Source: a virus | Virus record (IMG/VR): IMGVR_UViG_3300045988_183727 | Direction: 5' to 3' (one strand) | DNA: 64,000 nucleotides | Shown here: in pieces, positions 38,465 through 58,311 of the stretch | How positions within the stretch are numbered: the first letter of the stretch is position 1 | How the letters are laid out: every line of letters begins with the position of its first letter | Made by a program: the position numbers and the translations under genes | The notes under the pieces: model-generated | Told to the model about the DNA's origin: nothing | What the model saw: only the letters and a program-made list of their open reading frames with translations | Databases searched by the model: none

Positions 38465-38491
38465 GTTGTCTCCTTTCTTTTTTTGCGGATT

Positions 38492-39010: not shown

Positions 39011-39071
39011 CCTTGCGGGAAATCTAATGTAGTCCTTCCTCACGGGAGCCTCCTTTCTGCAGGCATCCCCC

Positions 39072-39404: not shown

Positions 39405-39406
39405 TC

Positions 39407-40159: not shown

Positions 40160-40222
40160 ATTTTTCTCCTTTCTCCCAGCCTGTGTTAAGGTCTTATGGG
40201 AACAAAAATGTAGTGAATATAT

Positions 40223-40355: not shown

Positions 40356-40367
40356 CGGTTTCGACGC

Positions 40368-40400
40368 AAAAGAAAAGAGCCGCACAGCGGCTCTTTTCTT
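40368..40400. terminator. Bidirectional terminator ending the upstream (-) operon
   Basis: aaaagagccgc aca gcggctctttt. Confidence 0.75.
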
Positions 40401-40412
40401 TAGGCTTGTTGT

Positions 40413-41372
40413 TCACGCTTCTACGTAAACTGGTTTAAGATACTGTGCGCTGAGAAATTTGCCTCGCAAGGAAGAAATCTTTGCCTCAGCGTCTTTCTCA
40501 CTGATAAACCTCTGAGCATCATCCACGGAGGACGTGTACTGGAGGTTGTTCTTCACGGATTTCTTCACATACTTCCCTGCGTATGCCTTTTCCGTACACA
40601 TAACGACATAGGGCCGAGGCGCCGTCATCTTGCGCGTTACGGTCTTGAACTCAAGTCCCATTACGCTGATAACCTCTCCCATTGCTGCCGTAGCTGCTTC
40701 CGCAGACGGGTAGTGAATGGCATCTCTGACATCCTTTGTGAAATGCACAGTTATTCTTCCAATCACATTATCAAATGCACGCACATAGCCCGCGTTGCGC
40801 TTTTGAACTACAAGCGGACCCTTTACATCCCGCGCTCTGGCAGGTCGCAGGCGCTCGCCGCGCTGTGTTCCGCTGAACGACATGAAGATGTAGTGGTCCT
40901 TGTGTTCTTTTACCAGTTCCCGTGCCTCATCCAGCCAGACTTCCAGCTCATCCGTTGTTCTGACATACCTCCACAGCAGATGGTCGCCGGACGTATAGGG
41001 CATCAGCCCTACATTCAGGTCGTTGACGCCGGGATTGGCGGCGAGGATGTCCTCCAGCGTGGCGGCATCCTTTGCGGCGCGAGCAAACCATTTCCGTGCC
41101 TGAGAGCAAGTGACCCACTTGCTGTTCATCTTCCAGCACTCATCATCGGTGTCGGGGAAGGTGGTATTCACCTTCGCCACAAATTCGTCCTCAGGAAGTT
41201 CCAGAAGATTGATTCCTCCCAGCAAGAACCAGTGGCGCTCGCGAACCTCTCGCGGCTTGAAATTCCTGTCGTAGATGAACTCGGAGCAGTTGTTGCTGCC
41301 ACCCAAGGCAAGGGGAATGATACCACGAGTTGTCTTGATGAAAGAGCGGGCATCAATGATAGTGTATCCCAT
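40413..41372 (-). CDS. Hypothetical protein (319 aa)
   Basis: ATG at 41372 follows aaaggagatgtaaaa. Confidence 0.65.
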   Translation of the reverse strand: MGYTIIDARSFIKTTRGIIPLALGGSNNCSEFIYDRNFKPREVRERHWFLLGGINLLELPEDEFVAKVNTTFPDTDDECWKMNSKWVTCSQARKWFARAAKDAATLEDILAANPGVNDLNVGLMPYTSGDHLLWRYVRTTDELEVWLDEARELVKEHKDHYIFMSFSGTQRGERLRPARARDVKGPLVVQKRNAGYVRAFDNVIGRITVHFTKDVRDAIHYPSAEAATAAMGEVISVMGLEFKTVTRKMTAPRPYVVMCTEKAYAGKYVKKSVKNNLQYTSSVDDAQRFISEKDAEAKISSLRGKFLSAQYLKPVYVEA

Positions 41373-41388
41373 TTTTACATCTCCTTTC

Positions 41389-41658
41389 TTACATCTCGCC
41401 ATCCTCGGCAGCGGTTATAATACCGAATCTGAGGTTGTTGTTGATGTCGTAGATACTTAATCCGCTATCAAAGTCCTTGCGGAGCTGCGTCGCAGCGGCC
41501 TCTACGGAGTCTTCGCCGTACTCAAACGTCTCGGACTCGACGCAGGTTGCCACAAGCTCCTTCAGCTTTGCGCGGGAAGTCGTCGCAGAAACCAGACGCA
41601 TAGAGTCTGTTGCTTTCCAAGCGTCACAGGCAAACACGATGAAGATAGGATTACTCAT
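41389..41658 (-). CDS. Hypothetical protein (89 aa)
   Basis: The internal ATG at 41658 overlaps the end of the upstream gene. Confidence 0.55.
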   Translation of the reverse strand: MSNPIFIVFACDAWKATDSMRLVSATTSRAKLKELVATCVESETFEYGEDSVEAAATQLRKDFDSGLSIYDINNNLRFGIITAAEDGEM

Positions 41659-42229
41659 TTTCGGCTTGCTCCTTTCTTCTTCCAACGGTGGCTGCGGGGT
41701 ACGGTGTGGCCCGCTTGTTGTTGCTGTCCATGATTCGCATAACATGGACAAGCATCTCGGAATATGCCCTGTGCATGGTTTCATACCGCGCACGCCATGT
41801 ATTATCATCATTGTCGTTCACGCGAGCACTCAGCCCCATGCTGTAGTACAGCGCGGCGTCGATGTCTACCAGCTCCGCTTCAGTCAGGTGGCAGATATAG
41901 GCTCCCAGCTCATTGACAGAAACTGCCATCGGCTGCTCGCACAGTGCTGTGCTGGGGCGGCTCGTGCTCGTGATGAGTACATGGGAGGGCTGCTGCATCT
42001 TTGGAGATGATGTCGTAAATACGACCTCCACTACACTGCTGTAGCGGTTCAGGTCATCCGAAGATACAACGATTGCGGGACGATGCCCTCTGATAACAGA
42101 GCTATTGGAAGGATGTCCGTCTTTATCGCGGAACTGGCTTCCTTCCGGGGCCCAAGGGGAAAAGATTTCGATTTCTTTCGCATTGACCCAAAAAACATCG
42201 CCCCTGCGGATGTTTCCATTTCTACCCAT
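41651..42229 (-). CDS. PemK/MazF-family toxin-like protein with a ~70-aa C-terminal extension
   Basis: RRGDVFWV...GHRPAIVVSSDDLN...VVEVVFTTSS...PSHVLI...STALCEQPMAVSVNELG matches the MazF/PemK pattern. Confidence 0.7.
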   Translation of the reverse strand: MGRNGNIRRGDVFWVNAKEIEIFSPWAPEGSQFRDKDGHPSNSSVIRGHRPAIVVSSDDLNRYSSVVEVVFTTSSPKMQQPSHVLITSTSRPSTALCEQPMAVSVNELGAYICHLTEAELVDIDAALYYSMGLSARVNDNDDNTWRARYETMHRAYSEMLVHVMRIMDSNNKRATPYPAATVGRRKEQAENE

Positions 42230-42437
42230 AGATTCTTGTCTCCTTTCCTTCAGAATTGGTTACACACGACGGAATGCCGAAAAAAGACAGAACCGCTTTA
42301 AGCGGCTCTGTCTCCATGCAGTCGATATGACACTGTTTGTTTTCGTAGGGTGCCTCGACAAATTCTTCGCCAACCTCAATGGGTTCGTGGCAAATGCAGC
42401 ATTCGCCGGCGTAACGAATTTCCTTTTTTGCTTTCAC
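42222..42437 (-). CDS. Small Cys-containing protein (71 aa), candidate cognate antitoxin by position only
   Basis: GTG start after aaaggag. Overlaps the MazF-like start by 8 nt. Confidence 0.5.
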   Translation of the reverse strand: MKAKKEIRYAGECCICHEPIEVGEEFVEAPYENKQCHIDCMETEPLKAVLSFFGIPSCVTNSEGKETRIYG

Positions 42438-42458
42438 AATGAATTTACTCCTTTCTTT

Positions 42459-42662
42459 TCAAAGTTGCCGAGACAGTGTTACGGCTGCCTGCTGGCGTCG
42501 TCTTTCGCAGTTTCTTCGCTGCACTTCGATAGCTTCGCGAGCCTCCGCAATACACTGCTTCGCACGCCTATCCTGTTCAGAAGAGAAAGATGCGTAGCGC
42601 TCAGAGTAGACGGAATCCATACGCTCGGCTCTCTCAATTAACTCATACAGCGGTGTAGACAT
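42459..42662 (-). CDS. Small hypothetical protein (67 aa)
   Basis: ATG with RBS gaggaggag. Confidence 0.55.
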   Translation of the reverse strand: MSTPLYELIERAERMDSVYSERYASFSSEQDRRAKQCIAEAREAIEVQRRNCERRRQQAAVTLSRQL

Positions 42663-42678
42663 AGCTTCTCCTCCTCGT

Positions 42679-42951
42679 TTATTGAATGTTCATGCCTACG
42701 GCGCGAGGACCTTCTTTGGACCAAGTTTCCTTGAGCCAGTGATAGGTGATTGTGCTATCTTCGGGACTCTTGTCTGGGTAGCAGGGAAGGTATGCTGCGG
42801 AGTACAAGTCTCTGCACTGACTGAAGTACACATGATTCCAGTCAGCCCACACATCACCAAGAGAACGGATAGCTCGCTTGAACGACCGAAAGCTCTGTGG
42901 CGTGTGAACTACGATGGCATTTGCTCCGTTCCACTTTCCATTCCACATCAT
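42679..42951 (-). CDS. Hypothetical protein (90 aa)
   Basis: ATG overlapping the upstream stop. Confidence 0.55.
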   Translation of the reverse strand: MMWNGKWNGANAIVVHTPQSFRSFKRAIRSLGDVWADWNHVYFSQCRDLYSAAYLPCYPDKSPEDSTITYHWLKETWSKEGPRAVGMNIQ

Positions 42952-43217
42952 TGCACTTCACCTCCCTGATACGTCGGGCGGCTGCGTCTGTTACGGAACG
43001 GAGGCATCACCGGTGCGGTGTAGCTGGTCAGCTCACCCGTCATTTTGACAGGCACACACTGGAGCAATCCGCGCTGTTTTCGATACTGGTGAGCCAAGTT
43101 GTTGCGAGCCTGTTTCTCAGAAACCGCCATAGTCGTCCCGCCCCACTTATTTGTGGTAATGTCGTCATAGACACGAACGGGTCCGAGATAGCTGAAAACC
43201 ATTTTTGCCTGTGCCAT
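42948..43217 (-). CDS. Hypothetical protein (89 aa)
   Basis: ATG follows aagaaaggagaaaacaca. It is the first gene after cassette 4. Confidence 0.6.
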   Translation of the reverse strand: MAQAKMVFSYLGPVRVYDDITTNKWGGTTMAVSEKQARNNLAHQYRKQRGLLQCVPVKMTGELTSYTAPVMPPFRNRRSRPTYQGGEVQ

Positions 43218-43262
43218 TGTGTTTTCTCCTTTCTTATTGTGTTGTAATGTAAAAAAATATAT

Positions 43263-43394
43263 AAAAAGACAGCTATCCCTGTCTTGGGATAACTGTCTTG
43301 AATACTTGGTGTGACTGGAAGCGGAGATAAGTCTCCTTATAAAAATATCTTCGTAATTATACTATTATACTACCACAATTATTTATAATGTCAA
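43263..43394 (-). promoter_or_regulatory. Promoter-leader-terminator cassette 4
   Basis: TTGACA (43394-43389), 16 nt, TAGTAT (43372-67), TATAAT-like, GGAGACTTATCTCC, and the terminator AAGACAGTTATCCC/GGGATAGCTGTCTT + T5 (43299-43263). Confidence 0.75.
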
Positions 43395-43404
43395 CAATGG
43401 CAGA

Positions 43405-43439
43405 GAAAAAAGAGGCGGCTTTCGCCTGCCTCTTTTTTT
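43405..43439. terminator. Bidirectional terminator ending the RecG operon
   Basis: A6 gaggcgg ctttcg cctgcctc T7. Confidence 0.7.
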
Positions 43440-44610
43440 ACCTTATTTCCTCGGAGTATTGTGCCATCCAGCAGTCGCAAAGGGCTTCCGCTACGACCTC
43501 ACTTCTATCGTTATCGTCAGAAATCATCAGGATTGAAGAAAGGGCTGACCGCATACCTTCATCGAGCGTAAACTCCCTCTCGTTTCCACTTTTATCTGGG
43601 ACATTTGTTCGAGCAAGCAGCGTCGAATATTTCGTATAATCGGGGGAAATGAAATAGTCCACAGCCGTGTCGAGTCCAATACTCAGCATCATAAGATTGC
43701 CGGTCGTTCCCATTGGTTCTTTCTTTCCGGACTTCTTCTCCGGTCTCATAAGAGTTCCGTTCTTGTCAAAGAATATTGCCCTATCTGACTTTTCAAATGT
43801 GTCTACAGGAACGCTAAAGCATCTGATTGCCATGTTCTTAAAAGGAGCACTGGCGTCTTCGCCGAACAGTGAGGAAGCATTACAGCAGTCATTTTCCATC
43901 TTCTCGTTAAGCCGCTTTATATAAAGCTCCTGAAAATCAATGGGAGCACCTGCGCTGTCCGCGTATACGTAGTTTTCTGGCTTTTTGCCGTCTGCCGTTT
44001 CCCTTACCATGTACTGCTCGTACTGCTTGCACATTTCTTTAATCTTAACTTGTATCCGCAAGGAATCGGAAAACGGAACTGCTGAGATTTGGGAGAAAAG
44101 GGAGGAGTAGTTGTGAGGGAGGTGGATGGGCGCACACTCATCTCCGAATAAGACTTTTTCGCAGGACTTGTCAAGGAAAAAGTATGAGGTTTTGTAAAGA
44201 CCTTCAACAGACGCATAAAACCCTTCAGGCAGCCGTCGCGTCTGCTTGCCGTCTGCTGGAGGCGAAATGCGTAACTCAAACGGGCCCACAGAGGTAAGCG
44301 CACCGTCCTCAGGCTCCTTGAGGCGCGACATTTTAGTTGCGTCCATGCCGATTTCTGCGCCAATTTGCTTCACATTCCATTCTCCATAGACACGTGGCAT
44401 TTTGGTAATGGCAAACAGCTCTTCGTACACTCTCGCGGAAACAAGCCTGCGTACCAAAGTGAGCTCATCGCTGAATTCGGCATATATTCCGAGCATTTCC
44501 TTGTAATTCAATTTTTCCGACTTCTCGGCGGAAGAGAACCGCGTATTGAGTTTTGTCGCCCATTTATTGCAGTCGATATATGCGTTGACTGCACTATCCT
44601 TTTTTCTCAT
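43438..44610 (-). CDS. Hypothetical protein (390 aa) with a possible HTH
   Basis: ATG with translational coupling to the upstream gene. VKQIGAEIGMDATKMSRL is HTH-like. The stretch is visibly AT-richer. Confidence 0.65.
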   Translation of the reverse strand: MRKKDSAVNAYIDCNKWATKLNTRFSSAEKSEKLNYKEMLGIYAEFSDELTLVRRLVSARVYEELFAITKMPRVYGEWNVKQIGAEIGMDATKMSRLKEPEDGALTSVGPFELRISPPADGKQTRRLPEGFYASVEGLYKTSYFFLDKSCEKVLFGDECAPIHLPHNYSSLFSQISAVPFSDSLRIQVKIKEMCKQYEQYMVRETADGKKPENYVYADSAGAPIDFQELYIKRLNEKMENDCCNASSLFGEDASAPFKNMAIRCFSVPVDTFEKSDRAIFFDKNGTLMRPEKKSGKKEPMGTTGNLMMLSIGLDTAVDYFISPDYTKYSTLLARTNVPDKSGNEREFTLDEGMRSALSSILMISDDNDRSEVVAEALCDCWMAQYSEEIR

Positions 44611-47800: not shown

Positions 47801-47960
47801 GTGTGTTAGAGAGAAAATTTACTGGATGTCAACCTTTTTTCTTTTGCATATTCGTTATTATTGCCAACTATTTTTCCGTAAAATACAGCTTGCTTTAGTT
47901 TGCGCGGCACGCTTTGCGGCGTATAAACTCGCGGTATAGCTTTTTTTTCTGATAATTAGA

Positions 47961-47989
47961 CTTGACATTTTTATATGTTCGTGTTAGTA
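47961..47989 (+). promoter_or_regulatory. Promoter of the conserved family driving the leader and tRNA cluster
   Basis: cTTGACATTTTTATATGTTCGTGTTAGTAT. Divergent from the recG promoter. Confidence 0.7.
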
Positions 47990-48300
47990 TAACAGCGTGG
48001 ACAGGGCAAGAAAGGCTCGTTCGAAGGGCTCGTGCCTAAAATGACAATATTCTTGCGATTGTAAGAATAAGCGCCTAAATTGCCCGTCCCGTTTTCTTCT
48101 TTCTTTAATTACACTCATAAGCACAATAAAGTCAGCTCCCTGAGGGAAGTGTGCGGGAGTTGCTTCGACTTTCGCGTTGTTCTCCATGCGGGGAGGTTCT
48201 GGCGGTTCGAGTCCGCACGACGCGCCTTCTGTTTTCGCTGCTTCTATCTTCACCTCCGTCTTTTTAACGAGCAGCGGACACAGAAACATCTCTCAATATG

Positions 48301-48867: not shown

Positions 48868-49229
48868 CTTTATCTGCTTATTTGTCCTGTGTTTTTCGGA
48901 CAACATCGGTGAGCGCAAAAGTCGCCTGAAGCGTGAGAAGCGAGCTGCCTGCATCTGTTTTGCGGGCGGTGGCGTGATAAGGGTGAAACTCTGCGCTTTC
49001 AGTAGCCGTAAGCAGGTGAGCAAAAGTCTCTGCGAACGCCTGCATGGTTCGCGGGACAAGGGAAGCCGGAAAAATAAGTAAACGCGGGCCGAGCGCAGAG
49101 GTTGTTGGCGTATTCCAGACGTGGGTGCTGCCTTTTATGCTGTGCTTGTTTGCGTGGGGTCCGGTGTTCTCGCAGTCTGGATGGTTGCTGCGAGAGGTGC
49201 CAAAACTTATTGCGAAAGGACGGAGTTCT

Positions 49230-50288
49230 ATGCCAACTACATTTCAAGCGTTTAAGTATCGCATTTACCCGACTGATGAGCAGGTCGAAATCATTGAAAA
49301 GACTTTCAAGTGCTGCCGGTTTGTGTGGAACCATTTCCTTGAGCGAACCTCCAAAATCTATGACCGTCGGCAGGAAAAGATGACGACCTTCGACTGTATG
49401 AAGGTTCTCACGGAGATGCGGGAGCGCTGGCCTTGGCTTGCGGACTGCGGCTGTACGGCAGAGAGATATGCCATCATTGATTTGTTTGAGGCGCGAAAGG
49501 CGTTCTTCCGCCGCATTAAAGCGGGGGAGAAGCCCGGTTATCCCAAATTTAAGGGCGCGTCCCATCCGACACAGAGTTTTACGACCGCTGGTACTATCTA
49601 TGTGACGGACGATTACATTCAGGTTCCGTTTGGAGGACAGTATCAGAAAATCAACAAGCTCAGGCGAGGGACGGGGCGCCCCATCGAAGGGTCTCCCCGC
49701 GAGGTCACTATTTCTCGGTCTGCTACCGGAAAATACTGGGCATCTGTCTGCTGTAAAGTAGAGCGAGACACGCTGCCTATTGTGGACGGCGAGGTGGGAA
49801 TCAGTCTCGGCCTGAAGGAGTTGGCTATTGACAGCAACGGCGTTCACTATGAGAACCCGAAGCATCTGAGCAAGTCTGCAAAGCGGTTGGCACGTGAGCA
49901 GCGGCGTCTATCCCGCAAGAAGAAGGGCTCTGTCAACTACGAGAAGCAGCGGCGCAAGGTAGCCGGCGTCCATGAGCATATTGCCAATCAGCGCAATGAC
50001 TACCGGCATAAAATCAGCCGTGAACTTGTCAACGCAAACCAGCTTATTGCCGTTGAGAAGGTGGCCGTTAAGCCCTTAGTTGAGGGCAATGAGCAGGCTA
50101 AAAGCATCCTCGATGCCGGCTGGTCTGAACTTACCGGTATGATAAAGTATAAGGCGGACTGGGCTGGACGCACTCTGGTGGACGTAGATACCGCCACCGT
50201 AGCACCGGAAGCCAAGCATGATGAGGCACTGGCACAGGTCGTGCTGTCCGAAGGTCAGCGCATGGCTTCCGAGCAGAAGCCTGCCTAA
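49230..50288 (+). CDS. TnpB-like protein, predicted nuclease-dead and C-terminally truncated (TldR-like); could alternatively be a decaying tnpB
   Basis: N-terminal FKYRIYPTDEQ (OrfB/TnpB). RuvC-I reads VGISLGLK where the family consensus has GIDLG (D to S). RuvC-II has IAVEKV. The ORF stops after KADWAGRTLVDVD, before the zinc finger and RuvC-III. ATG at 49230 follows aaaggacgg. Confidence 0.8.
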   Translation: MPTTFQAFKYRIYPTDEQVEIIEKTFKCCRFVWNHFLERTSKIYDRRQEKMTTFDCMKVLTEMRERWPWLADCGCTAERYAIIDLFEARKAFFRRIKAGEKPGYPKFKGASHPTQSFTTAGTIYVTDDYIQVPFGGQYQKINKLRRGTGRPIEGSPREVTISRSATGKYWASVCCKVERDTLPIVDGEVGISLGLKELAIDSNGVHYENPKHLSKSAKRLAREQRRLSRKKKGSVNYEKQRRKVAGVHEHIANQRNDYRHKISRELVNANQLIAVEKVAVKPLVEGNEQAKSILDAGWSELTGMIKYKADWAGRTLVDVDTATVAPEAKHDEALAQVVLSEGQRMASEQKPA

Positions 50289-50303
50289 AGCCGAGCGAGG
50301 AAA

Positions 50304-50322
50304 GTGTGCAATGATTGCACAC
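50304..50322. repeat. Palindrome GTGTGCAATGATTGCACAC (second copy)
   Basis: Identical to 20099-20117. It lies between the tnpB-like stop and scaffold C. Confidence 0.8.
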
Positions 50323-50344
50323 ATTGCCAAGGAAATAAAAACGA

Positions 50345-50473
50345 GTACGGACGGTATAGCCGGAATTAACGCCTGTGGAGATGCATGGTCGTCGTGGAAG
50401 CAGGAATACTCTGTTGGCTGGTAGTCACGTGAGAGGTGGCACCAGCGCTTTGGGGAACTGAATACCTGTGCTG
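50345..50473 (+). ncRNA. Omega-RNA-like scaffold, copy C (cognate position 57 nt downstream of the TnpB-like gene)
   Basis: Same family as A, B, D and E. Central hairpin GCTGG-TAG-TCAC-GTGAGAG-GTGG-CA-CCAGC, ending GGGGAAC plus TGAATACCTGTGCTGG. Confidence 0.75.
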
Positions 50474-50563
50474 GGTATACACCACCCGGAAATAACAGGG
50501 TTGTATACCAATTCATGGCGTCTCCTTTTGGTATACACCACCCGGAAATAACAGGGTTTTACC
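50474..50563 (+). repeat. Hairpin-repeat mini-array C (2 repeats, 20-nt spacer)
   Basis: Repeats at 50474-50509 and 50530-50563. The spacer is AATTCATGGCGTCTCCTTTT. Confidence 0.7.
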
Positions 50564-50663
50564 ATTCGTAATTATAGTTCTTCCCTCCGCTGTGTGGAGC
50601 GTTTTGTCGAAATGACAAAACATTCCTCTTAAATTCTTAAAAACAAGAAAGGAAATAAAGAAT

Positions 50664-51242
50664 ATGGAACCTTCTATCAACAGAACTCTCACCGTCAGCG
50701 TCGTCAGCTATGGCGTCGTATCTGTCGTCAATGGAGTCATCAACGTTGACAACCAGAACCCCATCGAGTTTCCCGCCGTGCTGGACGAGGCATCCGCTGC
50801 CAAGCTGCTGAAGAGCAGATACGGCGGCAAGCTGTTCCCCGTGGATGCAAATATCGTCGTGTCTTCCATCCGGCATGAGAAGTGGAAGTTCTCTATGGAC
50901 CTGAGCCAGTTCGTCGCTACCGCTGCCCGCAGCCGTGTGGACGGCACCGCATCCGAGGCCGACGATGCCCCCGCAGAGGACATCCCCGCCACTGAACCTG
51001 CTGTTCCCGCGCCTGAGACGACTCCCGCTGCTTCTCCTACTATCCCCATGCCTCTGGTCTCTGAGCCTGAGGAGGATTTTGCGCCTGCTACTCCCGAAGC
51101 GCCTGCTCCCACCGGTGGTTTCGCTCCTGAGACTCCCACTCCTGCACCTGATGCTCCCGCCAAGGAAGTTCCCTATGGTGGTAACTTCAATTTCCCCTCT
51201 GACTTCGGTGGCGACTTCGGTTCCGGCTTTTTCGGCGGTTAA
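50664..51242 (+). CDS. Hypothetical protein with a Pro/Ala/Glu-rich disordered tail (192 aa)
   Basis: ATG follows agaaaggaaataaagaat. The tail ends ...GGNFNFPSDFGGDFGSGFFGG. Confidence 0.65.
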   Translation: MEPSINRTLTVSVVSYGVVSVVNGVINVDNQNPIEFPAVLDEASAAKLLKSRYGGKLFPVDANIVVSSIRHEKWKFSMDLSQFVATAARSRVDGTASEADDAPAEDIPATEPAVPAPETTPAASPTIPMPLVSEPEEDFAPATPEAPAPTGGFAPETPTPAPDAPAKEVPYGGNFNFPSDFGGDFGSGFFGG

Positions 51243-51248
51243 TAACCG

Positions 51249-51416
51249 ATGGATGTCGTGAACGTTGGACGTGGATGCCTTGATTGCATCAATAAGGAAA
51301 CTCCGACGAATAAAGAACCCTGTAAGAGCTGTTCCCGCTGGAATAGGTGGGAACCTGACGAAAAGTGTAAGGAAAAGATGGCGGTCAAAGCCGCACGTGA
51401 AAGGACGAAGAAATGA
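51249..51416 (+). CDS. Small Cys-rich protein (55 aa; below the ORF-track cutoff)
   Basis: My own translation is MDVVNVGRGCLDCINKETPTNKEPCKSCSRWNRWEPDEKCKEKMAVKAARERTKK. Its stop overlaps the next ATG (ATGA). Confidence 0.4.
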   Translation: MDVVNVGRGCLDCINKETPTNKEPCKSCSRWNRWEPDEKCKEKMAVKAARERTKK

Positions 51417-51730
51417 GCAACACCAATACACCTGAAAAGCCCGTCGTCGTATTCATCAGTAATGACCACGATACCGTCATTGGTGTGATGGTCATTAAGA
51501 ACGACGATGAAAACCTGCAGAACAATCTCGAAATCATTGAGAAAAACTGGGTTGCTGCTCGTAACGAGTTGCTCCAGCGGGCTCGTGAGGACGATAGCAT
51601 TGAAGCAGACGAGGACGAGCTTCACATCGCATTCATCGCACACGAGTTGGGGATGTTCGACGAGCCCTATGAGACTATCGACATCTCCGGCGTTTACTCC
51701 GTCTCCAATGGGAATGTGGACCGCATCTAA
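51413..51730 (+). CDS. Hypothetical acidic protein (105 aa)
   Basis: ATG coupled to the upstream small ORF. Confidence 0.6.
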   Translation: MSNTNTPEKPVVVFISNDHDTVIGVMVIKNDDENLQNNLEIIEKNWVAARNELLQRAREDDSIEADEDELHIAFIAHELGMFDEPYETIDISGVYSVSNGNVDRI

Positions 51731-51754
51731 GTTGGTCTTGGCAGCAGACACACA

Positions 51755-51791
51755 GCGGCGCAGGCCCTACTCCGGCGGCTGCGCCGCTTTT
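51755..51791 (+). terminator. Rho-independent terminator
   Basis: gcggcgcag ... ctgcgccgc followed by TTTT. Confidence 0.7.
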
Positions 51792-51811
51792 CGCTAAATA
51801 CCTAAAAGCAA

Positions 51812-51942
51812 GTACGGACGGTATAACCGGAATTAACGCCTGTGGAGATGCATGGTCATCGTGGAAGCAGGAATGCTCTGTTAGCTGGTTTTCATGTGAG
51901 AGATGATGCCAGCAGCTAAGGGAACTGAATATGCCTGTGTTG
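51812..51942 (+). ncRNA. Omega-RNA-like scaffold, copy D
   Basis: Central hairpin GCTGG-TTT-TCAT-GTGAGAG-ATGA-TG-CCAGC (TCAT/ATGA covaries with TCAC/GTGA). Linker TGAATATGCCTGTGTTGG. Confidence 0.7.
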
Positions 51943-52155
51943 GGTGTATGAGGCCCTGAAATGACAGGGGTGTATACCATATAATCTGTCGCTTGAGGAG
52001 ACAGGCGTATAGAGCCCAGAAATAACAGGGTTGTATACCCCTTAACCGCGCTCCAACTTTCAATCCTAAGGTGTATAAGGGCCTGAAATAACGGGGTGAT
52101 ACCTCAGTTATTCCTTTTAGGTACATAACGGGCTAAAACAACAGGGTAGTGTACC
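51943..52155 (+). repeat. Hairpin-repeat mini-array D (4 repeats)
   Basis: Repeats at 51943-51978, 52005-52039, 52071-52103 and 52121-52155. Spacers are 26, 31 and 17 nt. The 3' arm CAGGGTTGTATACC is conserved while the 5' arm varies but keeps pairing. Confidence 0.7.
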
Positions 52156-52221
52156 AGATTATATATGATATGGGTGTAGGTATTCGTTTAGGACAACTTG
52201 AAGTTGAAAGGAGGTCTCTGG

Positions 52222-52743
52222 ATGGCCTCAAAAAAGATATATAGTTCCCCTGAACTCTATGAGGACAAGTTGGTGCGCGTAATGGCGCGGCTTGGTATCG
52301 AAGAAGGCGACTACAACTACGACTGGAGTCGTCAGGAGTGTTGGGTTGAGTTCAGGTACAAGGGTGAGCTTTACCGCTTCTCCCATAGCGTGAAGAACGC
52401 CCAAGAGCACGGCATCTCCCTGCAGTACGGCTCCGATGCCTTCGCACAGGTCGTGCTTTCTTTGGAAGACCTCGCCCGTATGGTCGAACGTGGCATCTAC
52501 GACCTGTCCACATGGGTGGCCGGAATGAGAGCTCTGCCGGAGCGCTCAAAGTCCTTGGATGCCTGTTTCATTGCTCTCGGCTTTGTAGAGCCGCCCACAT
52601 CCAAAGAAGAAATCACACTCCACTACCGCCGGTTGGCGAAGGTGTATCACCCTGATGCCGGTGGCGATAGCTCCTCATTTGATGCGCTGTCTAACAACTA
52701 TGCGAAATGTATGGAGATTTTCGAGGAGGTTGCCAACAAATAA
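52222..52743 (+). CDS. J-domain (DnaJ-like) protein
   Basis: ATG at 52222 follows aaaggagg. The C-terminal LHYRRLAKVYHPDAGGD carries the HPD motif. Confidence 0.75.
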   Translation: MASKKIYSSPELYEDKLVRVMARLGIEEGDYNYDWSRQECWVEFRYKGELYRFSHSVKNAQEHGISLQYGSDAFAQVVLSLEDLARMVERGIYDLSTWVAGMRALPERSKSLDACFIALGFVEPPTSKEEITLHYRRLAKVYHPDAGGDSSSFDALSNNYAKCMEIFEEVANK

Positions 52744-53252
52744 TGTATATGTCTCAGAAAGAGTTCAACGCTATGATGAAGAAAAACCCCCGCCTCCGTG
52801 TTCACGGTGCAAATAACAATACCCGCGAACATCGCTCCAAAGCGAATAAGGCGGCAAAATATAGAAATGTAAAGGTCTACGAGTATGCCGATGGGCTGGC
52901 TTTTTTCGGTAAGCCCCGCAATAATGGTGAAATCCCTATCGCTGTCTTTGACAGCAAGAAGGAGTACCACCGCTGGAAAGAGCTTCAGATTTTGGAGCGC
53001 GGCGGACATATCCACGACCTTCGCCGGCAGGTGCCTTTGACCATCATTACCGAGTTCGAGTATCGTGGTCAGAAGGTCTCCGGTATTACTTACAAAGCCG
53101 ACGCCGTCTATGTGCGCGACGGCAAGTGTGTGGTAGAGGACGTGAAGCCCTTCGATACCACAACGCAGAAGTATCGAACTACAAAGGATTTCAACCTCAA
53201 GTGGAAGCTGCTCAAGGCTGAATATCCTACTTGGTCTTTTGAAATCTATTAA
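52743..53252 (+). CDS. DUF1064-family protein (phage-type, nuclease-fold)
   Basis: KYRNVKVYEYADGLAFFGKPRN..., FDSKKEYHRWKELQILERGGHI..., ITYKADAVYVRDGKCVVEDVKP... follows the DUF1064 pattern. The start overlaps the upstream stop (TAATG). Confidence 0.65.
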   Translation: MYMSQKEFNAMMKKNPRLRVHGANNNTREHRSKANKAAKYRNVKVYEYADGLAFFGKPRNNGEIPIAVFDSKKEYHRWKELQILERGGHIHDLRRQVPLTIITEFEYRGQKVSGITYKADAVYVRDGKCVVEDVKPFDTTTQKYRTTKDFNLKWKLLKAEYPTWSFEIY

Positions 53253-53258
53253 AAACGA

Positions 53259-53390
53259 GTACGGATGGTATAACCGGAATTAACGCCTGTGGAGATGCAT
53301 GGTCGTCGTGGAAGCAGGAATACTCTGTTGGCTGGTAATCATGTGAGAGATGATACCGGCACCTTTGGGGAACTGAATATGCCTGTGTCG
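53259..53390 (+). ncRNA. Omega-RNA-like scaffold, copy E
   Basis: Central hairpin GCTGG-TAA-TCAT-GTGAGAG-ATGA-TA-CCGGC, whose U-G pair is only allowed on the + strand RNA. Linker TGAATATGCCTGTGTCGG. Confidence 0.7.
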
Positions 53391-53533
53391 GGTATATAGA
53401 ACCCTGAAACGACAGGGTTGTGTATCACAGAATAACTGCGGCAGCGGCATATATGGCTCTGAAACAACAGGGTTGTATACCGCATAAAAAAGGCTATGGT
53501 GTGTAATACCCTGAAATAACAAGGTTGTGTACC
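53391..53533 (+). repeat. Hairpin-repeat mini-array E (3 repeats)
   Basis: Repeats at 53391-53426, 53447-53481 and 53499-53533. Spacers are 20 and 17 nt. Confidence 0.7.
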
Positions 53534-53718
53534 CCATAACATATTGTTTCTGAAAGTGGTGGACGGCAAGTGGAAAATCTGAGCAACATCCGGTGGCGAG
53601 TTCATCTGTAAGACCTGCTACGGTGGAGGGAGCGGTATTTTCCTTGCCTACTTCGACCTCGTGCAGTGAGTGATTGCAGGGCTTTCGACGGTTCCGCAAA
53701 TTTGTTCGTTCCAAGAAC

Positions 53719-53796
53719 TTGACAAAATATCGAATTATAGTAGTATAGAATTATAAGGAAGGACAGTCTAACACAGACTGTCCTTCCGCTTTTTTA
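53719..53796 (+). promoter_or_regulatory. Promoter immediately followed by an intrinsic terminator (cassette 5, + strand, short leader)
   Basis: TTGACA (53719-24), 16 nt, TAGTAT (53741-46), then GGAAGGACAGTCT-AACAC-AGACTGTCCTTCC GCTTTTTT (53757-53796), 25 nt before the TTG start at 53821. Confidence 0.7.
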
Positions 53797-53820
53797 TGCT
53801 CAGAAAGGGGATGACAATTT

Positions 53821-54615
53821 TTGGGAAACACAAGCAAAAAGCACGTAAAATGGGGGATTTTCAAGACTGCACTTTTTACGTTCCTGTTCGTCGCAGTATC
53901 CGTTTTCTACTTTCTCTCCACCAACGTGACACTCGCACAGGCCGAAGAACGCTCGAACCACGAATCACCTCCTGCAGCAGAGGTTGCCGCCCAGATGGAC
54001 GACACCAAGCTGTCAGAAGAAGCGCAGCAAGATGTTTTGGTGCTGAAGGAAGGAATCCTCGACCCGCTTTCCGACATCACGGAAGCAGAGAACTCTGAAG
54101 ATGACCCCGACGCCGTGGAGGAAGTACAGGAAGTCGTTCCGACAGTCTGTTCCTACTGCGGCTCTGAGAACCATAGTTCCTCAATCTGTGCAAAGAGGTC
54201 TATCGCCAATGGTGCCTATGGGCGCTGGGTGATTCCGTCTGTTGGCTGTAATGTAGCGGCCTACTCGTGTAACTGGGATGCAGACCAATCCTATGTTCAG
54301 GAAATTACTGACAGTTCCGACAGTGCAGCTTTCTTGACTTGCGGCGGCGTTGGTGTTCTTGCGGACCACAATAACCAAGGTTTCTGTGGACTTTCCAATA
54401 TTTCTGTTGGCGCAAAAGCCTACATGGATTTTGGTGATGGTGCAACTTACTACGAGTGCTATCAGGTTGAATATGGACACAATACCGGCGAAAAGATGCT
54501 CGATGGAAATGGAAACATAATGAGCTACAGCAACTATTCTTCCGGCACCGTGATTTGCTACACCTGCCTTGACCACTGGACCAACATTTACATCACTTAC
54601 TGGACGCCGGTATAA
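53821..54615 (+). CDS. Sortase-like membrane-anchored protein, paralogue 1
   Basis: N-terminal TM, acidic linker, CSYCGSENHSSSIC. Sortase-type strands are WVIPSVGCNVAAY, LADHNNQGF and VICYTC. No obvious catalytic Arg. TTG start follows aaagggga. Confidence 0.55.
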   Translation: MGNTSKKHVKWGIFKTALFTFLFVAVSVFYFLSTNVTLAQAEERSNHESPPAAEVAAQMDDTKLSEEAQQDVLVLKEGILDPLSDITEAENSEDDPDAVEEVQEVVPTVCSYCGSENHSSSICAKRSIANGAYGRWVIPSVGCNVAAYSCNWDADQSYVQEITDSSDSAAFLTCGGVGVLADHNNQGFCGLSNISVGAKAYMDFGDGATYYECYQVEYGHNTGEKMLDGNGNIMSYSNYSSGTVICYTCLDHWTNIYITYWTPV

Positions 54616-54654
54616 GCGCCAGACACCCACTCTACTCTAAGAAAGGACAAAACC

Positions 54655-55455
54655 GTGAAAACGAAATTCAAAATCCCTCGGTGGGCACTCTTCACCGTTA
54701 TCATTCTGTCCTTTATCGGTGGTCTCTTTGCCATCTCCATGCTGCCTGCTTTCGCATCACGTGAAAGCTCTCCGCCTTTGGCAGTAGCAGAAGCCGCGCA
54801 GAACGAGGAAAAGGACGCAAATTCTGATGCTCAGACTCCCGAAGCAAACGAGACATCCGATGAGCATGGAAGCACTGAAACTCCCGTAGAGGACGAGCCT
54901 CAGGCAGACGATGCTGTCGTCGTTGAAGTGACTCCCTCCGAAGAGCCTGTTCAGGAAACTCCAACCACCTGTTCCTACTGCGGCAGCGTAGAACACACCA
55001 AAGACTACTGTGCCGTCCGTGCCGTGGACAATGGCGCCATTGGACGGCTCCGGATTCCCTCTGTCGGTGTTGACGTGGCTGTTTACGACGTCACTTGGTA
55101 CTCTCTGCAGCACACCACCGAAGGCGATAACTACGCGCAGGCCGTTACAGATGCATGGGACAGCGCCGCACAAATCGTCTATCTCGGCCAGACCGTTATT
55201 GGCGACCATAATAATCAGGGCTTCTCCGCCATCAACAACTGTGCCGAGGGCACTTACTCCTACATCGACATAGGCGACTCTGTCCTGACCTATGTTTGTA
55301 CCGGCATCCAGCATGGTCGCAACCCCGGTGGCTATCTTACCGGAGCCGATGGCGATAGCATCTATACCTCTTACTTCAATCCCAATGGTCTGACGCTGTA
55401 TACCTGTCTCGACCACAACTTCAATGTTGCCCTTGTGACATTCCAGCCTGCTTAG
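54655..55455 (+). CDS. Sortase-like membrane-anchored protein, paralogue 2
   Basis: GTG start follows aagaaagga. Contains CSYCGSVEHTKDYC, LRIPSVGVDVAVY, IGDHNNQGF and LTLYTC. Confidence 0.55.
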   Translation: MKTKFKIPRWALFTVIILSFIGGLFAISMLPAFASRESSPPLAVAEAAQNEEKDANSDAQTPEANETSDEHGSTETPVEDEPQADDAVVVEVTPSEEPVQETPTTCSYCGSVEHTKDYCAVRAVDNGAIGRLRIPSVGVDVAVYDVTWYSLQHTTEGDNYAQAVTDAWDSAAQIVYLGQTVIGDHNNQGFSAINNCAEGTYSYIDIGDSVLTYVCTGIQHGRNPGGYLTGADGDSIYTSYFNPNGLTLYTCLDHNFNVALVTFQPA

Positions 55456-55457
55456 GC

Positions 55458-55489
55458 TATTTAAGATTTGATGTGGGAAACCCACAAAA
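55458..55489. repeat. Left terminal inverted repeat (contains the GTGGG-AAA-CCCAC hairpin)
   Basis: Perfect 32/32 match to the reverse complement of 57153-57184. Confidence 0.9.
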
Positions 55490-55659
55490 AGTCTTATAGC
55501 CACAGCCACACCGACGTGTGTAAGTCTTCTCTCAGGTAGAGGCGACGGATGCACCTGCGGGTTTTCCCAGCTCGCAGCTCTGCCAAGCATACGCCGAGGT
55601 AAGGGAGACATTACCGCCTCCTCCGGAGGCGAGACACTACTGAAAGGAGATGAGCGCAC
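55490..55659 (+). ncRNA. Candidate IscB omega-RNA (HEARO-like) scaffold
   Basis: Non-coding, GC-rich and hairpin-rich (CACAC-CGAC-GTGTG; CGCCTCC-TCC-GGAGGCG) stretch directly upstream of iscB, which is the canonical omega-RNA position. The exact ends are unknown. Confidence 0.5.
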
Positions 55660-57144
55660 ATGACGATGGTCTATGTGCAAAATAAAGACGGTAAACCTTT
55701 GATGCCGACAACTCGCTATTGTTATGTGCGCCTTCTCCTGAAGGAGAAGAAAGCACGAGTTGTTTGCACTACCCCGTTTACCATCCAGTTGAACTATGAT
55801 ACCCCAGACATCACCCAAGACTTGATTCTTGGCATCGACCCCGGCAGAACGAACATTGGTGTCGCTGTCGTCAAGGAGGACGGCCAATGCGTGTTCTCCG
55901 CACATCTGGAGACGCGCAATAAGGACGTACCTCTTCTGATGCAGAAGCGTGCCGGTTTCCGTAAGCAGCATCGCACGTTGGACCGGCGCCGCAAGCGCCA
56001 GCGTCGTGCGAAGGCTGCTGGGACCACCGTTGCCGGGGGTTCTGTCGAGAGATTGCTCCCCGGCTATGAGAAGCCCATTGTGTGCCACCATATCCGCAAT
56101 AAGGAGGCGCGGTTCAATAACCGTAGCCGCCCTGTGGGATGGTTGACACCTACAGCAAATCACCTGCTGCAAACCCACATCAACCTGATTGCAAAGGTTG
56201 CGAAGTTCTTACCTATCACGAAAGTGGTGGTGGAGCTGAACCGCTTTGCATTCATGGCGATGGATAATCCCAATATCCGTCGGTGGGAGTACCAGCAGGG
56301 GCCGTTGTACGGACTGGGTTCCGTGGAGGATGCGGTGTACGCACAGCAGGATGGACATTGCCTGTTCTGCAAGAAGCCCATTGACCATTACCATCATGTT
56401 GTTCCACGCCACAAGGGTGGAAGTGAGACGCTGGCTAACCGGTGTGGGCTTTGTGCGAAGCATCACGACCTCGTCCATAAGGACAAGGCGTGGGCGGATA
56501 AGCTGGTCACACGCAAGGAAGGTATGAATAAAAAGTACCACGCCTTGAGTGTTCTGAACCAGATTATCCCGCATCTCATGGAGTATCTCGGAGGCGAGAC
56601 TCTCTACGATGTCTATGCCACGGATGGTAAGTCCACCAAGGGCTTCCGCGTTGCCAAGAACGTGCCGAAAGAACATTACACGGATGCCTACTGTATCGCC
56701 TGTTCCATTTTGGATGCGAATACGAAGGTCTCCACACCTGCCGAACCCTTTAAGCTGAAGCAGTTCCGTCGGCACGACCGGCAATCCTGCATCCGCCAAA
56801 TGGTTGACCGGAAGTACCTTCTGGATGGCAAGGTCGTTGCAGCAAACCGGCATAAGGCCATTGAGCAAAAGTCCGATAGCCTGCAGGAGTTCCGTGAGGC
56901 TTACGGCGATGCTGCGGTATCGCAGCTCACCGTGAAACCTCACTCGCCCCAGTACAAGGACATGACTCGTATCATGCCGGGGGCGGTGATGGATTTCGGT
57001 GGCGCTGTCGGGATTCTTCAGGGGTCGGAAGGCTTCCATAACGGCAAGCCGGACTACTATAAATCTACGAAAGGAGAACGGGTTTTAACGAGGAGATGTG
57101 CGCTTCTCGCACAGAACGCAGGCATGGTTTTCATTCCCGCCTGA
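55660..57144 (+). CDS. iscB: IscB RNA-guided nuclease (PLMP, RuvC, bridge helix and HNH)
   Basis: DGKPLMPT (PLMP), [14 protein letters not shown] (RuvC-I), Arg-rich [25 protein letters not shown]...[38 protein letters not shown] (RuvC-III). 494 aa. Confidence 0.9.
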
Positions 57145-57152
57145 AAACAAAG

Positions 57153-57184
57153 TTTTGTGGGTTTCCCACATCAAATCTTAAATA
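57153..57184. repeat. Right terminal inverted repeat (contains the GTGGG-TTT-CCCAC hairpin)
   Basis: Perfect reverse complement of 55458-55489. Confidence 0.9.
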
Positions 57185-57199
57185 TCCGGTGCAGCTTTA

Positions 57200-57973
57200 A
57201 TGAAAACAAAGAAAATTTCCCGCCGCGCCGTTACGCTGGCTGCCTTTTTGCTGGTAAGTGCATCATCTTTACATATGGCTTGTGCAGAGGCTTCGGTGCC
57301 TTTCGATTACTTTACTGATGACCTCTCTGTGTCCACTGACGCCGTTGCGAAGGAAGATAAATACCGGCCTCCTGAGTGGTTCACAAAAGAAAATGTTGTA
57401 AGTGAAGTGGACTCAGACACGCCTCCGGGGGAGACTCCTACCCCTGCGGGCGAACCTTCTGTGGCGACCCCCGTGCCTGAGCCCGCACCGGAAACCGCAG
57501 CAGCCTGCAGCTATTGCGGCAGCGCAGGGCACTCGCAGAATAGGTGTGCCGTTTACGCTGTCGAACAGCGAGGTGCCGTTGGGCGTTGGTCTATCCCTTC
57601 TATTGGAATAGATGTCGCTTGCTTCACCTATGTGCTTGGAAGCGATTCCTTCGAGTACGGACAGGCAATTTGTGACGCTGCCGATAGTGCCGGCTACAGT
57701 GCGTATGGGAGCCAGTATCTCATTGCAGACCACAACTATCAGGGCTTTTCTGCCATAGCCAACTGCGCGGTCGGTGCGGTGGGATATATGGATTACGGAA
57801 ACAGTCGAACAGAATATGTTTGTACTGGGGTGGAGTATGGGCACAATGAAGGCACGGAACTGACTGATAATGACGGAAACGATGTTGCGTACAACAACAG
57901 TGGAGGAATTACCCTTTACACCTGTTACAACGGCTGGCAAAACGTCGTCATAGCGTATTTTACTCCGGTTTAA
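57200..57973 (+). CDS. Sortase-like membrane-anchored protein, paralogue 3
   Basis: CSYCGSAGHSQNRC, WSIPSIGIDVACF, IADHNYQGF, ITLYTC. There is no convincing RBS; the IscB element abuts its 5' end. Confidence 0.5.
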   Translation: MKTKKISRRAVTLAAFLLVSASSLHMACAEASVPFDYFTDDLSVSTDAVAKEDKYRPPEWFTKENVVSEVDSDTPPGETPTPAGEPSVATPVPEPAPETAAACSYCGSAGHSQNRCAVYAVEQRGAVGRWSIPSIGIDVACFTYVLGSDSFEYGQAICDAADSAGYSAYGSQYLIADHNYQGFSAIANCAVGAVGYMDYGNSRTEYVCTGVEYGHNEGTELTDNDGNDVAYNNSGGITLYTCYNGWQNVVIAYFTPV

Positions 57974-58066
57974 CCGCTGGCCGCTGATGCTGAAGGATAT
58001 TTGAGGTTGGTTGTGCGGCGGCGCATCCAATCTTACATATCCCAGTTCTGAAAGGAAATGATAAAA

Positions 58067-58255
58067 ATGGCACGTCCCGTTGAAACCATAGACCCCAAGT
58101 TAGAAACGAGCAGATATATAACTGTTGATGGGGAGTATGAAGAACGAGAATCCTTTGCCGGAATGGTTTACAGCGACTCTTTACTGCAATCATTCTTCAG
58201 GAGGACTTGGAAGCGGCTTGAAGACGCCGCAAATGCCCATCAGGATACTCCCTGA
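58067..58255 (+). CDS. Small hypothetical protein upstream of the recombinase (possible directionality factor, by position only)
   Basis: ATG at 58067, 9 nt after gaaagga. The track start at 58058 is too close to the RBS. Confidence 0.45.
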   Translation: MARPVETIDPKLETSRYITVDGEYEERESFAGMVYSDSLLQSFFRRTWKRLEDAANAHQDTP

Positions 58256-58282
58256 TGGGCATTTTTCCCAAGAACTTACGAC

Positions 58283-58311
58283 TTGTCATTTTTTTATGTG
58301 GGTTGTATAAT
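58283..58311 (+). promoter_or_regulatory. Sigma-A-type promoter of the recombinase gene
   Basis: TTGTCA (58283-88), 17 nt, TGTATAAT (58304-11). Confidence 0.6.

Follow-up and report, generated by a model that had tools for sequence, protein, structure and literature searches.

Why would a mobile genetic element set a promoter in front of a group of genes and then place what looks like an intrinsic terminator between that promoter and the first start codon? The question is raised by a short stretch of the plus strand, positions 53694-53823, of the IMG/VR record IMGVR_UViG_3300045988_183727, of which the 64,000 nucleotides (nt) analysed here are called the window. The source is an uncultured human-gut mobile element, with related contigs of 31-192 kb in IMG/VR and others in ENA and Logan gut assemblies, and the genes concerned are three paralogues of sortase-like character. 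We propose, with about even confidence and from features of the sequence, that this unit is a sigma-A promoter whose transcripts meet an intrinsic terminator at about +40, gating the sortase-like operon. The unit is a minimal relative of a family of promoter-leader-terminator cassettes that is present in many copies per genome, with four in the window.

The first-pass annotation of this DNA had described TTGACA, a 16-nt gap, TAGTAT, a perfect 13-base-pair (bp) hairpin and a T-run, with the hairpin about 10 nt past the -10 element and its end 25 nt before the gene, and every one of these parts is present as described. The hairpin begins 10 nt past the -10 element, and the T-run ends 25 nt ahead of the TTG start codon. 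The transcription start site was set 7 nt after the -10 element, from spacing alone, which puts +1 at about 53753. The unit is laid out as follows.

53694-53718 (+): A/T-rich block CCGCAAATTTGTTCGTTCCAAGAAC upstream of the -35 element; the 5' edge of the conserved unit, where identity among related contigs starts
53719-53724 (+): -35 element TTGACA, unchanged in every copy of the unit and in 81 unique cassettes
53725-53740 (+): 16-nt spacer, differing among genomes (GAATTATA, GAAATATA or ATACTGTG, then a final G)
53741-53746 (+): -10 element TAGTAT, followed by AGAATTATAAGG; invariant in the cassettes; predicted start at about 53753
53752-53757 (+): second, -10-like box TATAAG, 5 nt past the first -10 element, at about -1 to +5
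53757-53769 and 53775-53787 (+): perfect 13-bp inverted repeat GGAAGGACAGTCT / AGACTGTCCTTCC, with loop AACAC
53788-53795 (+): GC spacer and T6, GCTTTTTT, with the U-tract at +38 to +43; with the hairpin, the signature of an intrinsic terminator
53803-53811 (+): ribosome-binding site (RBS) GAAAGGGGA, preceding the TTG start codon at 53821

Judged against the sigma-A / sigma-70 consensus, TTGACA-16-TAGTAT matches at 10 of 12 positions. Spacer variants of the unit that end in TGTGG yield a TRTG, or extended -10, motif, which is invariant in the cassettes. Because a perfect -35 element lies at 16 nt and relatives carry the TRTG extension, TAGTAT is almost certainly the primary -10 element; TATAAG may induce sigma-dependent pausing or serve as a -10 element in its place. 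With TAGTAT as the primary element, the unit's own transcripts should hold the whole hairpin and U-tract and end at about +40. The stem comprises 13 perfect pairs, seven of them G-C, and spans predicted positions +5 to +35 of the transcript; the G+C-containing hairpin with its 5-nt loop, together with T6 after a 2-nt GC spacer, has the features of an intrinsic terminator. On the opposite strand the tail of the hairpin, TTATAATTCT, is poor, and the terminator is therefore directional.

The union of promoter and hairpin is more than chance. The RNA fold of the unit reaches -31.2 kcal/mol (z = -6.1), none of 200 shuffles was as stable, and the minimum-free-energy fold has a frequency of 0.62, without a competing helix. 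Perfect hairpins of at least 11 bp number nine in the window with 0.18 expected, a 50-fold excess, and the hairpin of the unit is the only one of the nine whose stem is not made of A/T tracts. Likewise, TTGACA-N15-18-TAGTAT is found six times in the window with 0.02 expected. A generic promoter consensus gave 7 matches in 8 kb with 7.2 expected and is by itself not significant.

The block from CCGCAAATTTGTTCG, at about -60, to the start codon is nearly unchanged across 24 IMG/VR loci and about 20 metagenome loci. Farther upstream, the DNA takes at least four forms among related contigs: a repeat array, a truncated repeat element (L013), neither of these (L010, L011, L021), or other sequence, as in L177, a relative of 82% identity. 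Variation within the unit falls mostly in the -35/-10 spacer, and some variants restore the TGTGG extension of the cassettes. In one sister lineage, seen in an IMG/VR contig (L108) and a metagenome contig (L178), the same promoter, TATAAGG, and a hairpin with T6 at the same offset precede a paralogous sortase-like gene, and the hairpin differs in stem and loop (AGGAAAGCAGCG-GATAA-CGCTGCTTTCCT). This other stem at the same position argues that the hairpin is conserved in structure rather than in sequence. In L001, L002 and L167, one T-to-C change close to the loop goes uncompensated. On other gut contigs, distant homologues of the first gene (25-48% identity) have a terminator, a promoter and an RBS in this, the usual, order, and the gap between promoter and RBS is empty. 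That the order of promoter then terminator is conserved and recurrent holds in more than 40 related contigs and at least four upstream contexts, and with the other stem in L108 and L178.

The arrangement recurs beyond the unit in the cassettes, which were gathered in two partly overlapping collections, one based on the promoter (60 unique) and one on the leader (81 unique). A scan of IMG/VR for the promoter pattern returned at least 117 stretches; extraction gave 93 unique sequences among the matches listed, made up of 60 full cassettes from the clade of this element, 11 copies or variants of the minimal unit and 22 unrelated phage promoters. Among these listed matches, a 13-15-bp hairpin with T4-8 at +63 to +99 is present in 60 of the 60 unique full cassettes, and a hairpin of at least 8 bp in 0 of the 22 unrelated phage promoters of the same pattern, which supports the recurrence of the arrangement. 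TTGACA, GTGG, TAGTAT and TATAAT are invariant in the 81 cassettes collected by leader, where variation is seen in the spacer and in the 3 nt that part the -10 boxes; the second box, TATAAT, is at about -1 to +5. For 14 diverse cassettes, the RNAalifold consensus consists of the terminator only, with compensatory double changes at 10 of its 14 pairs, and an alternative antiterminator helix was not found in it.

In the window, a cassette runs in the order bidirectional operon-end terminator, promoter, conserved leader, long terminator, 42-72 nt, RBS and gene. Its promoter reads TTGACA-16-TGTGG-TAGTATA(G/A)-N3-TATAAT; from the -10 element onward the four window cassettes have TAGTATA(G/A)TAGTATAAT, and most cassettes of related genomes have TAGTATAGAATTATAAT. 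The leader in the window reads TACGAAG.TATTTTTATAAGGAG...CTCCGTTTTC...AGTCAC, and that of the family, of about 60 nt, TACGAAG(A/C)TATTTTTATAA(A)GGAG..CTCCGTTTTC..AAGTCAC. The four window copies, minus-strand repeats grouped as family D1, align with the unit across the promoter.

43267-43394 (-): full cassette 1, with promoter 43394-43367, terminator 43298-43267 and gene start 43217
40227-40355 (-): full cassette 2, with promoter 40355-40328, terminator 40258-40227 and gene start 40159
36240-36368 (-): full cassette 3, with promoter 36368-36341, terminator 36271-36240 and gene start 36197
29861-29992 (-): full cassette 4, with promoter 29992-29965, terminator 29895-29861 and gene start 29788

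The unit carries the family promoter, TTGACA-16-(TGTGG)TAGTATA(G/A)-N3-TATAA, and, between this promoter and the RBS of a gene on the same strand, a long-stem hairpin and T-run of the family type. It has no conserved cassette leader: TATAAGG runs directly into the hairpin, and only the junctions TTATAAGGA and G(C)TTTT are common to both. For want of that leader the unit is a truncated relative of the cassettes, not a full member, and it looks like a shortened cassette derivative. The first-pass annotation had spoken of the same promoter type, which stands for the pattern TTGACA-16-TAGTATA(G/A)-N3-TATAA and fails for the exact string TAGTATAGAATTATAAGG, found once in the window. It had also called the leader independent, and this we must abandon: promoter, TTATAAGGA-hairpin-G(C)TTTT junction and second -10-like box are all common to the unit and the cassettes. 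The further claim, that the arrangement itself is selected, fares better. The arrangement is selected and belongs to the family, from which it is not independent; very probably the hairpin serves the upstream operon as well, and a regulatory role is something that we infer.

Several smaller features of the cassettes may be recorded here. An ATATA(T/A) box stands 0-2 nt past the terminator T-run in all cassettes of the window and of L025-L141; in the window these boxes lie on the minus strand.

29851-29860 (-): ATATA(T/A) box past the terminator of cassette 4
36230-36239 (-): ATATA(T/A) box past the terminator of cassette 3
40217-40226 (-): ATATA(T/A) box past the terminator of cassette 2
43257-43266 (-): ATATA(T/A) box past the terminator of cassette 1

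A second sigma-A promoter after the cassette terminators was considered and rejected, as manual inspection, without a formal scan, found no conserved -35 element or TG extension at a usable spacing by the ATATA box. In each cassette leader (e.g., 36334-36272 on the minus strand), the first hairpin is a small one, GGAG(A)-TTA-(T)CTCC, with GTTTTC after it. In L025, L028, L058 and L079 this hairpin takes the form GGAGC-AGAA-GCTCC plus TGTTTTTT, with a perfect Shine-Dalgarno-like AAAGGAG inside. The hairpin of the minimal unit occupies the junction equivalent to that of the cassette leader hairpin, TTATAAGGA ... G(C)TTTT.

The analysis establishes the sequence anatomy, its conservation, the retention of the hairpin as a structure rather than a sequence, and the kinship of the unit with the cassettes; what the unit does with these parts is a matter of interpretation. 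Full cassettes carry one terminator ahead of the promoter, separate from the one downstream, which there can act only on the cassette's own transcripts. The unit has no such separate terminator ahead of its promoter. It is this pattern of the full cassettes, one terminator upstream and a second far past the start, that leads us to read the unit as a promoter-proximal terminator gate. The start codon follows the T-run by only 25 nt, too short a distance for a second promoter after the hairpin, and transcription of the sortase-like genes must therefore either cross the hairpin or begin within it. We envisage that host sigma-A RNA polymerase starts at about 53753 from TTGACA-16-TAGTAT, that the nascent RNA folds the 13-bp hairpin at +5 to +35, and that most polymerases would be released at the U-tract, at about +40 to +43. 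The three sortase-like genes would then be expressed solely by those polymerases that read through, a step probably promoted by a putative factor encoded by the element. Since the unit is without the leader, such a factor would need to act via the promoter and the TATAA(G/T) box that it has in common with the cassettes. This box, at -1 to +5, would occupy the position of a sigma-dependent pause element, as in the lambdoid PR' promoter. At lambda PR', a -10-like element in that position makes polymerase that still carries sigma pause close to the promoter, and it is there that Q loads. A Q-like factor loaded at the promoter would be the most economical single explanation for both types of unit. 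In addition, the 5'-terminal hairpin of read-through transcripts should shield them from 5'-dependent decay in Firmicutes; in Bacillus subtilis mRNA decay, RNase J1 and RNase Y are sensitive to 5'-terminal structure. Terminator stems in B. subtilis average 9 +/- 2 bp (PMC10325885), and the 13-15-bp stems of the family are long by comparison, a point in favour of the gate. Stems of about 14-15 bp withstood conAn antitermination in plasmid pLS20 (PMC10325885), and relief by a conAn-type mechanism is therefore unlikely.

Several considerations weigh against the gate. The start site, termination, read-through, and a factor with its mode of action are all things that we infer. The 2-nt GC spacer between stem and U-run is atypical and may lower termination efficiency. 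In every genome examined, the hairpin is the first terminator after the upstream operon that contains a DUF1064 gene; very probably it also ends that operon, and it would thereby insulate the sortase-like operon, a double function outside the interpretation of the first-pass annotation. The first-pass annotation had named a hairpin serving upstream transcription as the case that would overturn its view, and that case is at least partly true; selection for ending the upstream operon alone could explain the hairpin. The -35/-10 spacer varies among cassettes and among copies of the unit, which argues against a lambda-type Q-binding element. Pfam and PHROGs searches of about 50 window proteins and 187 protein clusters of related loci found no Q, N, NusG/LoaP, sigma or other known antitermination domain, in a set made up mostly of ORFans or proteins without a family, and from genomes partly sampled. 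The copies of the unit are, moreover, close kin (neighbouring genes share 71-98% protein identity), and their conservation is thus weaker evidence than it appears. Only two versions of the hairpin exist, besides the variant with the uncompensated mismatch (L001/L002/L167).

Were the gate part of something wider, the element would run an antitermination regulon, in which many sigma-A promoters are closed by long-stem terminators and opened by one element-encoded factor in a Gram-positive host, loaded on polymerase at the promoter-proximal -10-like box and Q-like in its logic though not in its sequence. We regard this extension as unlikely. Under it, the leaderless unit would be the smallest sufficient cis-element, reduced to promoter, pause box and terminator.

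The main rival reading, a rather doubtful one, gives the hairpin to the upstream operon altogether. The unit would then be a composite like the PeSLs of T4-type phages, which join a strong promoter and a terminator stem-loop in a small cassette (PMC2839356; PMC4122927): the hairpin would end the upstream operon (DnaJ-like gene, DUF1064 gene, repeat array), transcription would start inside the 5' arm, at about 53763-53765, by way of TATAAG, and the resulting transcripts, lacking a complete hairpin beside the U-tract, would go unterminated, with no gate at all. A start 7 nt past TATAAG would indeed cut 6-8 nt from the 5' arm; the hairpin is the first terminator past the upstream same-strand genes in every genome, and the breakpoints of upstream variation fall at the edge of the unit, as in PeSL-mediated shuffling. 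However, TATAAG has neither a usable -35 element (TCGAAT, 3 of 6 positions) nor a TG extension, whereas TAGTAT has a perfect TTGACA at 16 nt, with TGTGG in several genomes and in all cassettes. In the 60 full cassettes among the matches listed, the terminator lies 60-100 nt past both -10 boxes, where their own transcripts cannot escape it, and these cassettes already have a separate upstream terminator. Furthermore, the stem-loop of a PeSL usually lies between the -35 and -10 elements or over the -10 element, but that of the unit is downstream of both.

The gate might also work without any factor. Here a strong promoter would be constitutively damped by a partly efficient terminator and the read-through mRNA stabilised by its 5' stem-loop, giving fixed, low, insulated expression of accessory genes. 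The hairpin stands about 4 nt from the predicted 5' end, where 5' stem-loops are known to protect mRNA in B. subtilis; no antiterminator gene was found among the scanned proteins, and the non-U spacer between stem and U-run fits a terminator of partial efficiency. We think such factor-free tuning reasonable as an alternative but improbable: it leaves unexplained why the many cassettes with this promoter combine unusually long, 13-15-bp canonical terminators, always at one distance, with a leader and a second -10 box that do not vary, and a weaker promoter could damp expression equally.

It is very unlikely that the unit is instead the gene for a trans-acting hairpin small RNA of about 40 nt, of the antisense or kissing-loop type, with downstream expression incidental. 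A promoter, a single stem-loop and a U-tail form the architecture of many plasmid antisense RNAs, and the cassettes would likewise yield RNAs of about 100 nt with a conserved 5' part. Yet a search of the window for complementary targets gave 5 matches with 1.6 expected, none of them convincing, only the palindrome itself and a likeness with two mismatches to a cassette terminator arm. No other promoter serves the downstream genes, and the different loop and stem of L108 make a common trans target unlikely. Least credible of all is that the palindrome acts as DNA, either as a recombinase site or as an operator, overlapping the start of transcription, for a dimeric repressor: its perfect 13-5-13 symmetry spans +1, operators are repeated at many early promoters in SPbeta (SPBRE/MrpR; PMC10516654) and p576 (EGeRS2; PMC8708921), and a serine recombinase gene lies 4.5 kb downstream, but L108 and L178 keep the geometry and the T-run rather than the sequence, as befits an RNA structure, the directional T6 tract goes unexplained, and the cassette terminators covary likewise.

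Three further candidates were rejected. A riboswitch or classical attenuator has only about 4 nt ahead of the hairpin, and no antiterminator helix appears in the fold. Rfam, searched with the window at the gathering threshold and with 50250-55700 and 29800-43500 at E<=1, returned only tRNAs and terminator-driven sub-threshold matches, and none of its families fitted the unit even at E<=1. A cis-acting antiterminator RNA (put, EAR, canT or conAn2) finds no space between the promoter and terminator of the unit. A single-stranded-DNA promoter of the Frpo type, known from conjugative leading regions, would have an inverted repeat that pairs with the promoter, and none does so in the unit or in the two cassettes examined.

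How, then, does the gate compare with systems already described? In its presumed working it is closest to the lambdoid PR'-pause-tR' module, and in structure to the T4-type PeSLs, with a looser likeness to the repeated regulatory sequences of SPbeta and the pLS20-family plasmids, and it appears to be a member of none of the systems compared. Like the lambdoid module (the 6S RNA unit, with Q), it has a promoter of sigma-70 type that looks constitutive, a hexamer resembling a -10 element in the region first transcribed (at -1 to +5 in the unit, where pausing may occur) and a near intrinsic terminator, so arranged that a short RNA would be the default and downstream genes would need modified polymerase. 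In contrast, the terminator of the unit spans +5 to +43 rather than about +100 to +200, and the element has many units rather than one. The variable -35/-10 spacer shows no evident lambda-type Q-binding element, no Q-family protein was found among the proteins and clusters searched, and the host is presumably a Gram-positive gut bacterium.

With the PeSLs, the unit shares a small repeated cassette of strong sigma-70-like promoter, terminator stem-loop and RBS, set ahead of variable small genes, with an upstream context that switches at the cassette edge in a manner compatible with shuffling; the cassette family, too, occurs in many copies by variable small open reading frames (ORFs), and breakpoints lie at the 5' edge of the unit. 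The PeSL stem-loop, however, usually sits between the -35 and -10 elements or over the -10 element and stops incoming transcription only (PMC2839356), whereas that of the cassettes is unambiguously past the start site and that of the unit starts 10 nt after the -10 element. There is no sequence relationship, and host and kind of element differ.

The conAn system of pLS20 (PMC8191782; PMC8955417; PMC10325885) and canT of Tn916 (PMC11658703) also place genes behind insulating intrinsic terminators, whose bypass by an element-encoded activity is needed for expression, a strategy to which we liken the unit. Those systems, unlike the unit, consist of one antiterminator locus (RNA with or without protein) that starts one long operon. 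The unit, with 4 nt before its hairpin, has no room for an RNA element; its family's 13-15-bp stems are within the range reported as conAn-resistant, and a ConAn1-like factor was not found. The reuse of one regulatory sequence before variable small-gene operons of a large Firmicute mobile element is likewise known from SPBRE/MrpR in SPbeta (PMC10516654) and from EGeRS1/2 in the pLS20 family (PMC8708921), and EGeRS1 also stops read-through from upstream (PMC8708921). SPBRE, by contrast, is a 15-bp repressor operator for which a terminator is not mentioned (PMC10516654), EGeRS1 is 420-750 bp long without a detectable sigma-A promoter, and EGeRS2 is a promoter plus operator (PMC8708921). In neither SPBRE nor EGeRS is a canonical terminator described behind a promoter, and SPBRE serves here only to exemplify an element repeated at early promoters. 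Among the regulatory cassettes, or promoter-proximal terminators, of mobile elements, the unit is a form that differs from the known systems with which it was compared.

The readings differ in consequence. If transcripts do stop at +40, about 80 bp would suffice for an extremely compact transcriptional gate, the smallest form of a cassette under whose control stands much of an abundant uncultured human-gut element. It would reveal what in the cassette termination and its relief depend on, would point to an antitermination or read-through factor in gut Firmicutes, and might be used in engineering as a small insulator or gate. If the hairpin ends the upstream operon only, what remains is an ordinary, tightly packed junction of terminator and promoter. 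The cassette family is more notable than the unit alone, which by itself is of moderate interest.

Promoter-then-terminator is not a habit of every promoter of the element. A second promoter family, CTTGACA-TTTTATGTTCGTG-TTA.AAT, has a conserved spacer (ACTTGACATTATTTTATGTTCGTGTTA.AAT), which suggests a common DNA-binding regulator, and no terminator behind it; the arrangement therefore belongs to one promoter class and not to all. Members of this second family precede a topoisomerase, a nuclease/SPFH pair, a tRNA cluster, the serine recombinase and a RecG-like helicase operon, and lie at the following positions.

8835-8864 (+): second-family promoter
17255-17284 (+): second-family promoter
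47957-47990 (+): second-family promoter
58278-58307 (+): second-family promoter
47800-47771 (-): second-family promoter

Downstream of the unit on the same strand are the three paralogues and one inserted gene.

53821-54615 (+): gene 1, 264 amino acids, TTG start, a membrane-anchored paralogue of the sortase-like proteins
54655-55455 (+): gene 2, sortase-like, 266 amino acids, Pfam Sortase E 0.0035, below the curated cut-off
55660-57144 (+): IscB-like gene, Pfam RRXRR E 2e-49, inserted between genes 2 and 3
57200-57973 (+): gene 3, sortase-like, 257 amino acids, Pfam Sortase E 0.0051, sub-threshold

An independent gene caller made the same call for the 264-amino-acid product on ENA and Logan contigs. 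Gene 1 aligns with its two neighbours, and the three paralogues, all membrane-anchored, have in common an invariant CCHC knuckle-like motif, CSYCGSxxHxxxxC, followed by the putative catalytic motifs DHNxQGF and YTC. The name sortase-like, taken over from the first-pass annotation, holds in so far as two of the three have sub-threshold Pfam matches (E 0.003-0.005), and not for gene 1, which has no Pfam match of its own; a PDB profile search for the sortase fold gave a best sortase match at E 0.3, which is not significant. Insertion of the IscB-like gene is polymorphic, with genes 2 and 3 adjacent in L156, L159 and L160, and L157 has an RRXRR gene nearby in the opposite orientation. No HEARO or omega-RNA match was found upstream of the IscB-like gene.

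On the same strand upstream of the unit lie genes for TnpB, small ORFs, a DnaJ-domain protein and DUF1064, set apart by a repeated structured element of about 130 nt that is followed by arrays of 36-nt hairpins.

19720-20162 (+): element of about 130 nt with hairpin array
50336-50571 (+): element of about 130 nt with hairpin array
51803-52161 (+): element of about 130 nt with hairpin array
53250-53540 (+): element of about 130 nt with hairpin array

Copies of the 130-nt element are 81-98% identical and adopt a closed multi-stem fold with a few compensatory changes, and none matches an Rfam family. Each array holds 2-4 degenerate 36-nt hairpins of the type GGTATACACCACCCGGAAATAACAGGGTTGTATACC, with a conserved loop (GAAATAACA), covarying stems and a spacing of 50-66 nt. 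The copies come after tRNA, TnpB and other ORFs; the element is absent in L010 and truncated in L013. One copy begins 48 nt past the stop codon of the TnpB (OrfB_IS605) gene at 49044-50288 (+).

As to the element as a whole, its contigs are filed as viral in IMG/VR, and its phage-like content comprises four tRNAs, DUF1064, YopX, YqaJ, SSB and a RecG-like helicase. Alongside these stand features of conjugative plasmids, namely a type IA topoisomerase, a TrbC/VirB2 pilin, RepL, thioester/SpaA adhesins, Zeta and PemK/MazE toxin systems, DUF3846, DUF4314 and DUF4942; the gene 4.5 kb downstream of the unit encodes a large serine recombinase. From this content, the element (the window and L025-L154) may not be a phage but a conjugative element or a phage-plasmid. 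Neither the INPHARED phages nor the PLSDB plasmids gave a Megablast match to 50300-58300, and a search of GTDB representative genomes with the 264-amino-acid protein gave no relative. Lastly, the minus-strand region of small genes contains a tandem duplication of about 442 bp (34713-35598; families D4 and D12), whose copies are 77-84% identical.

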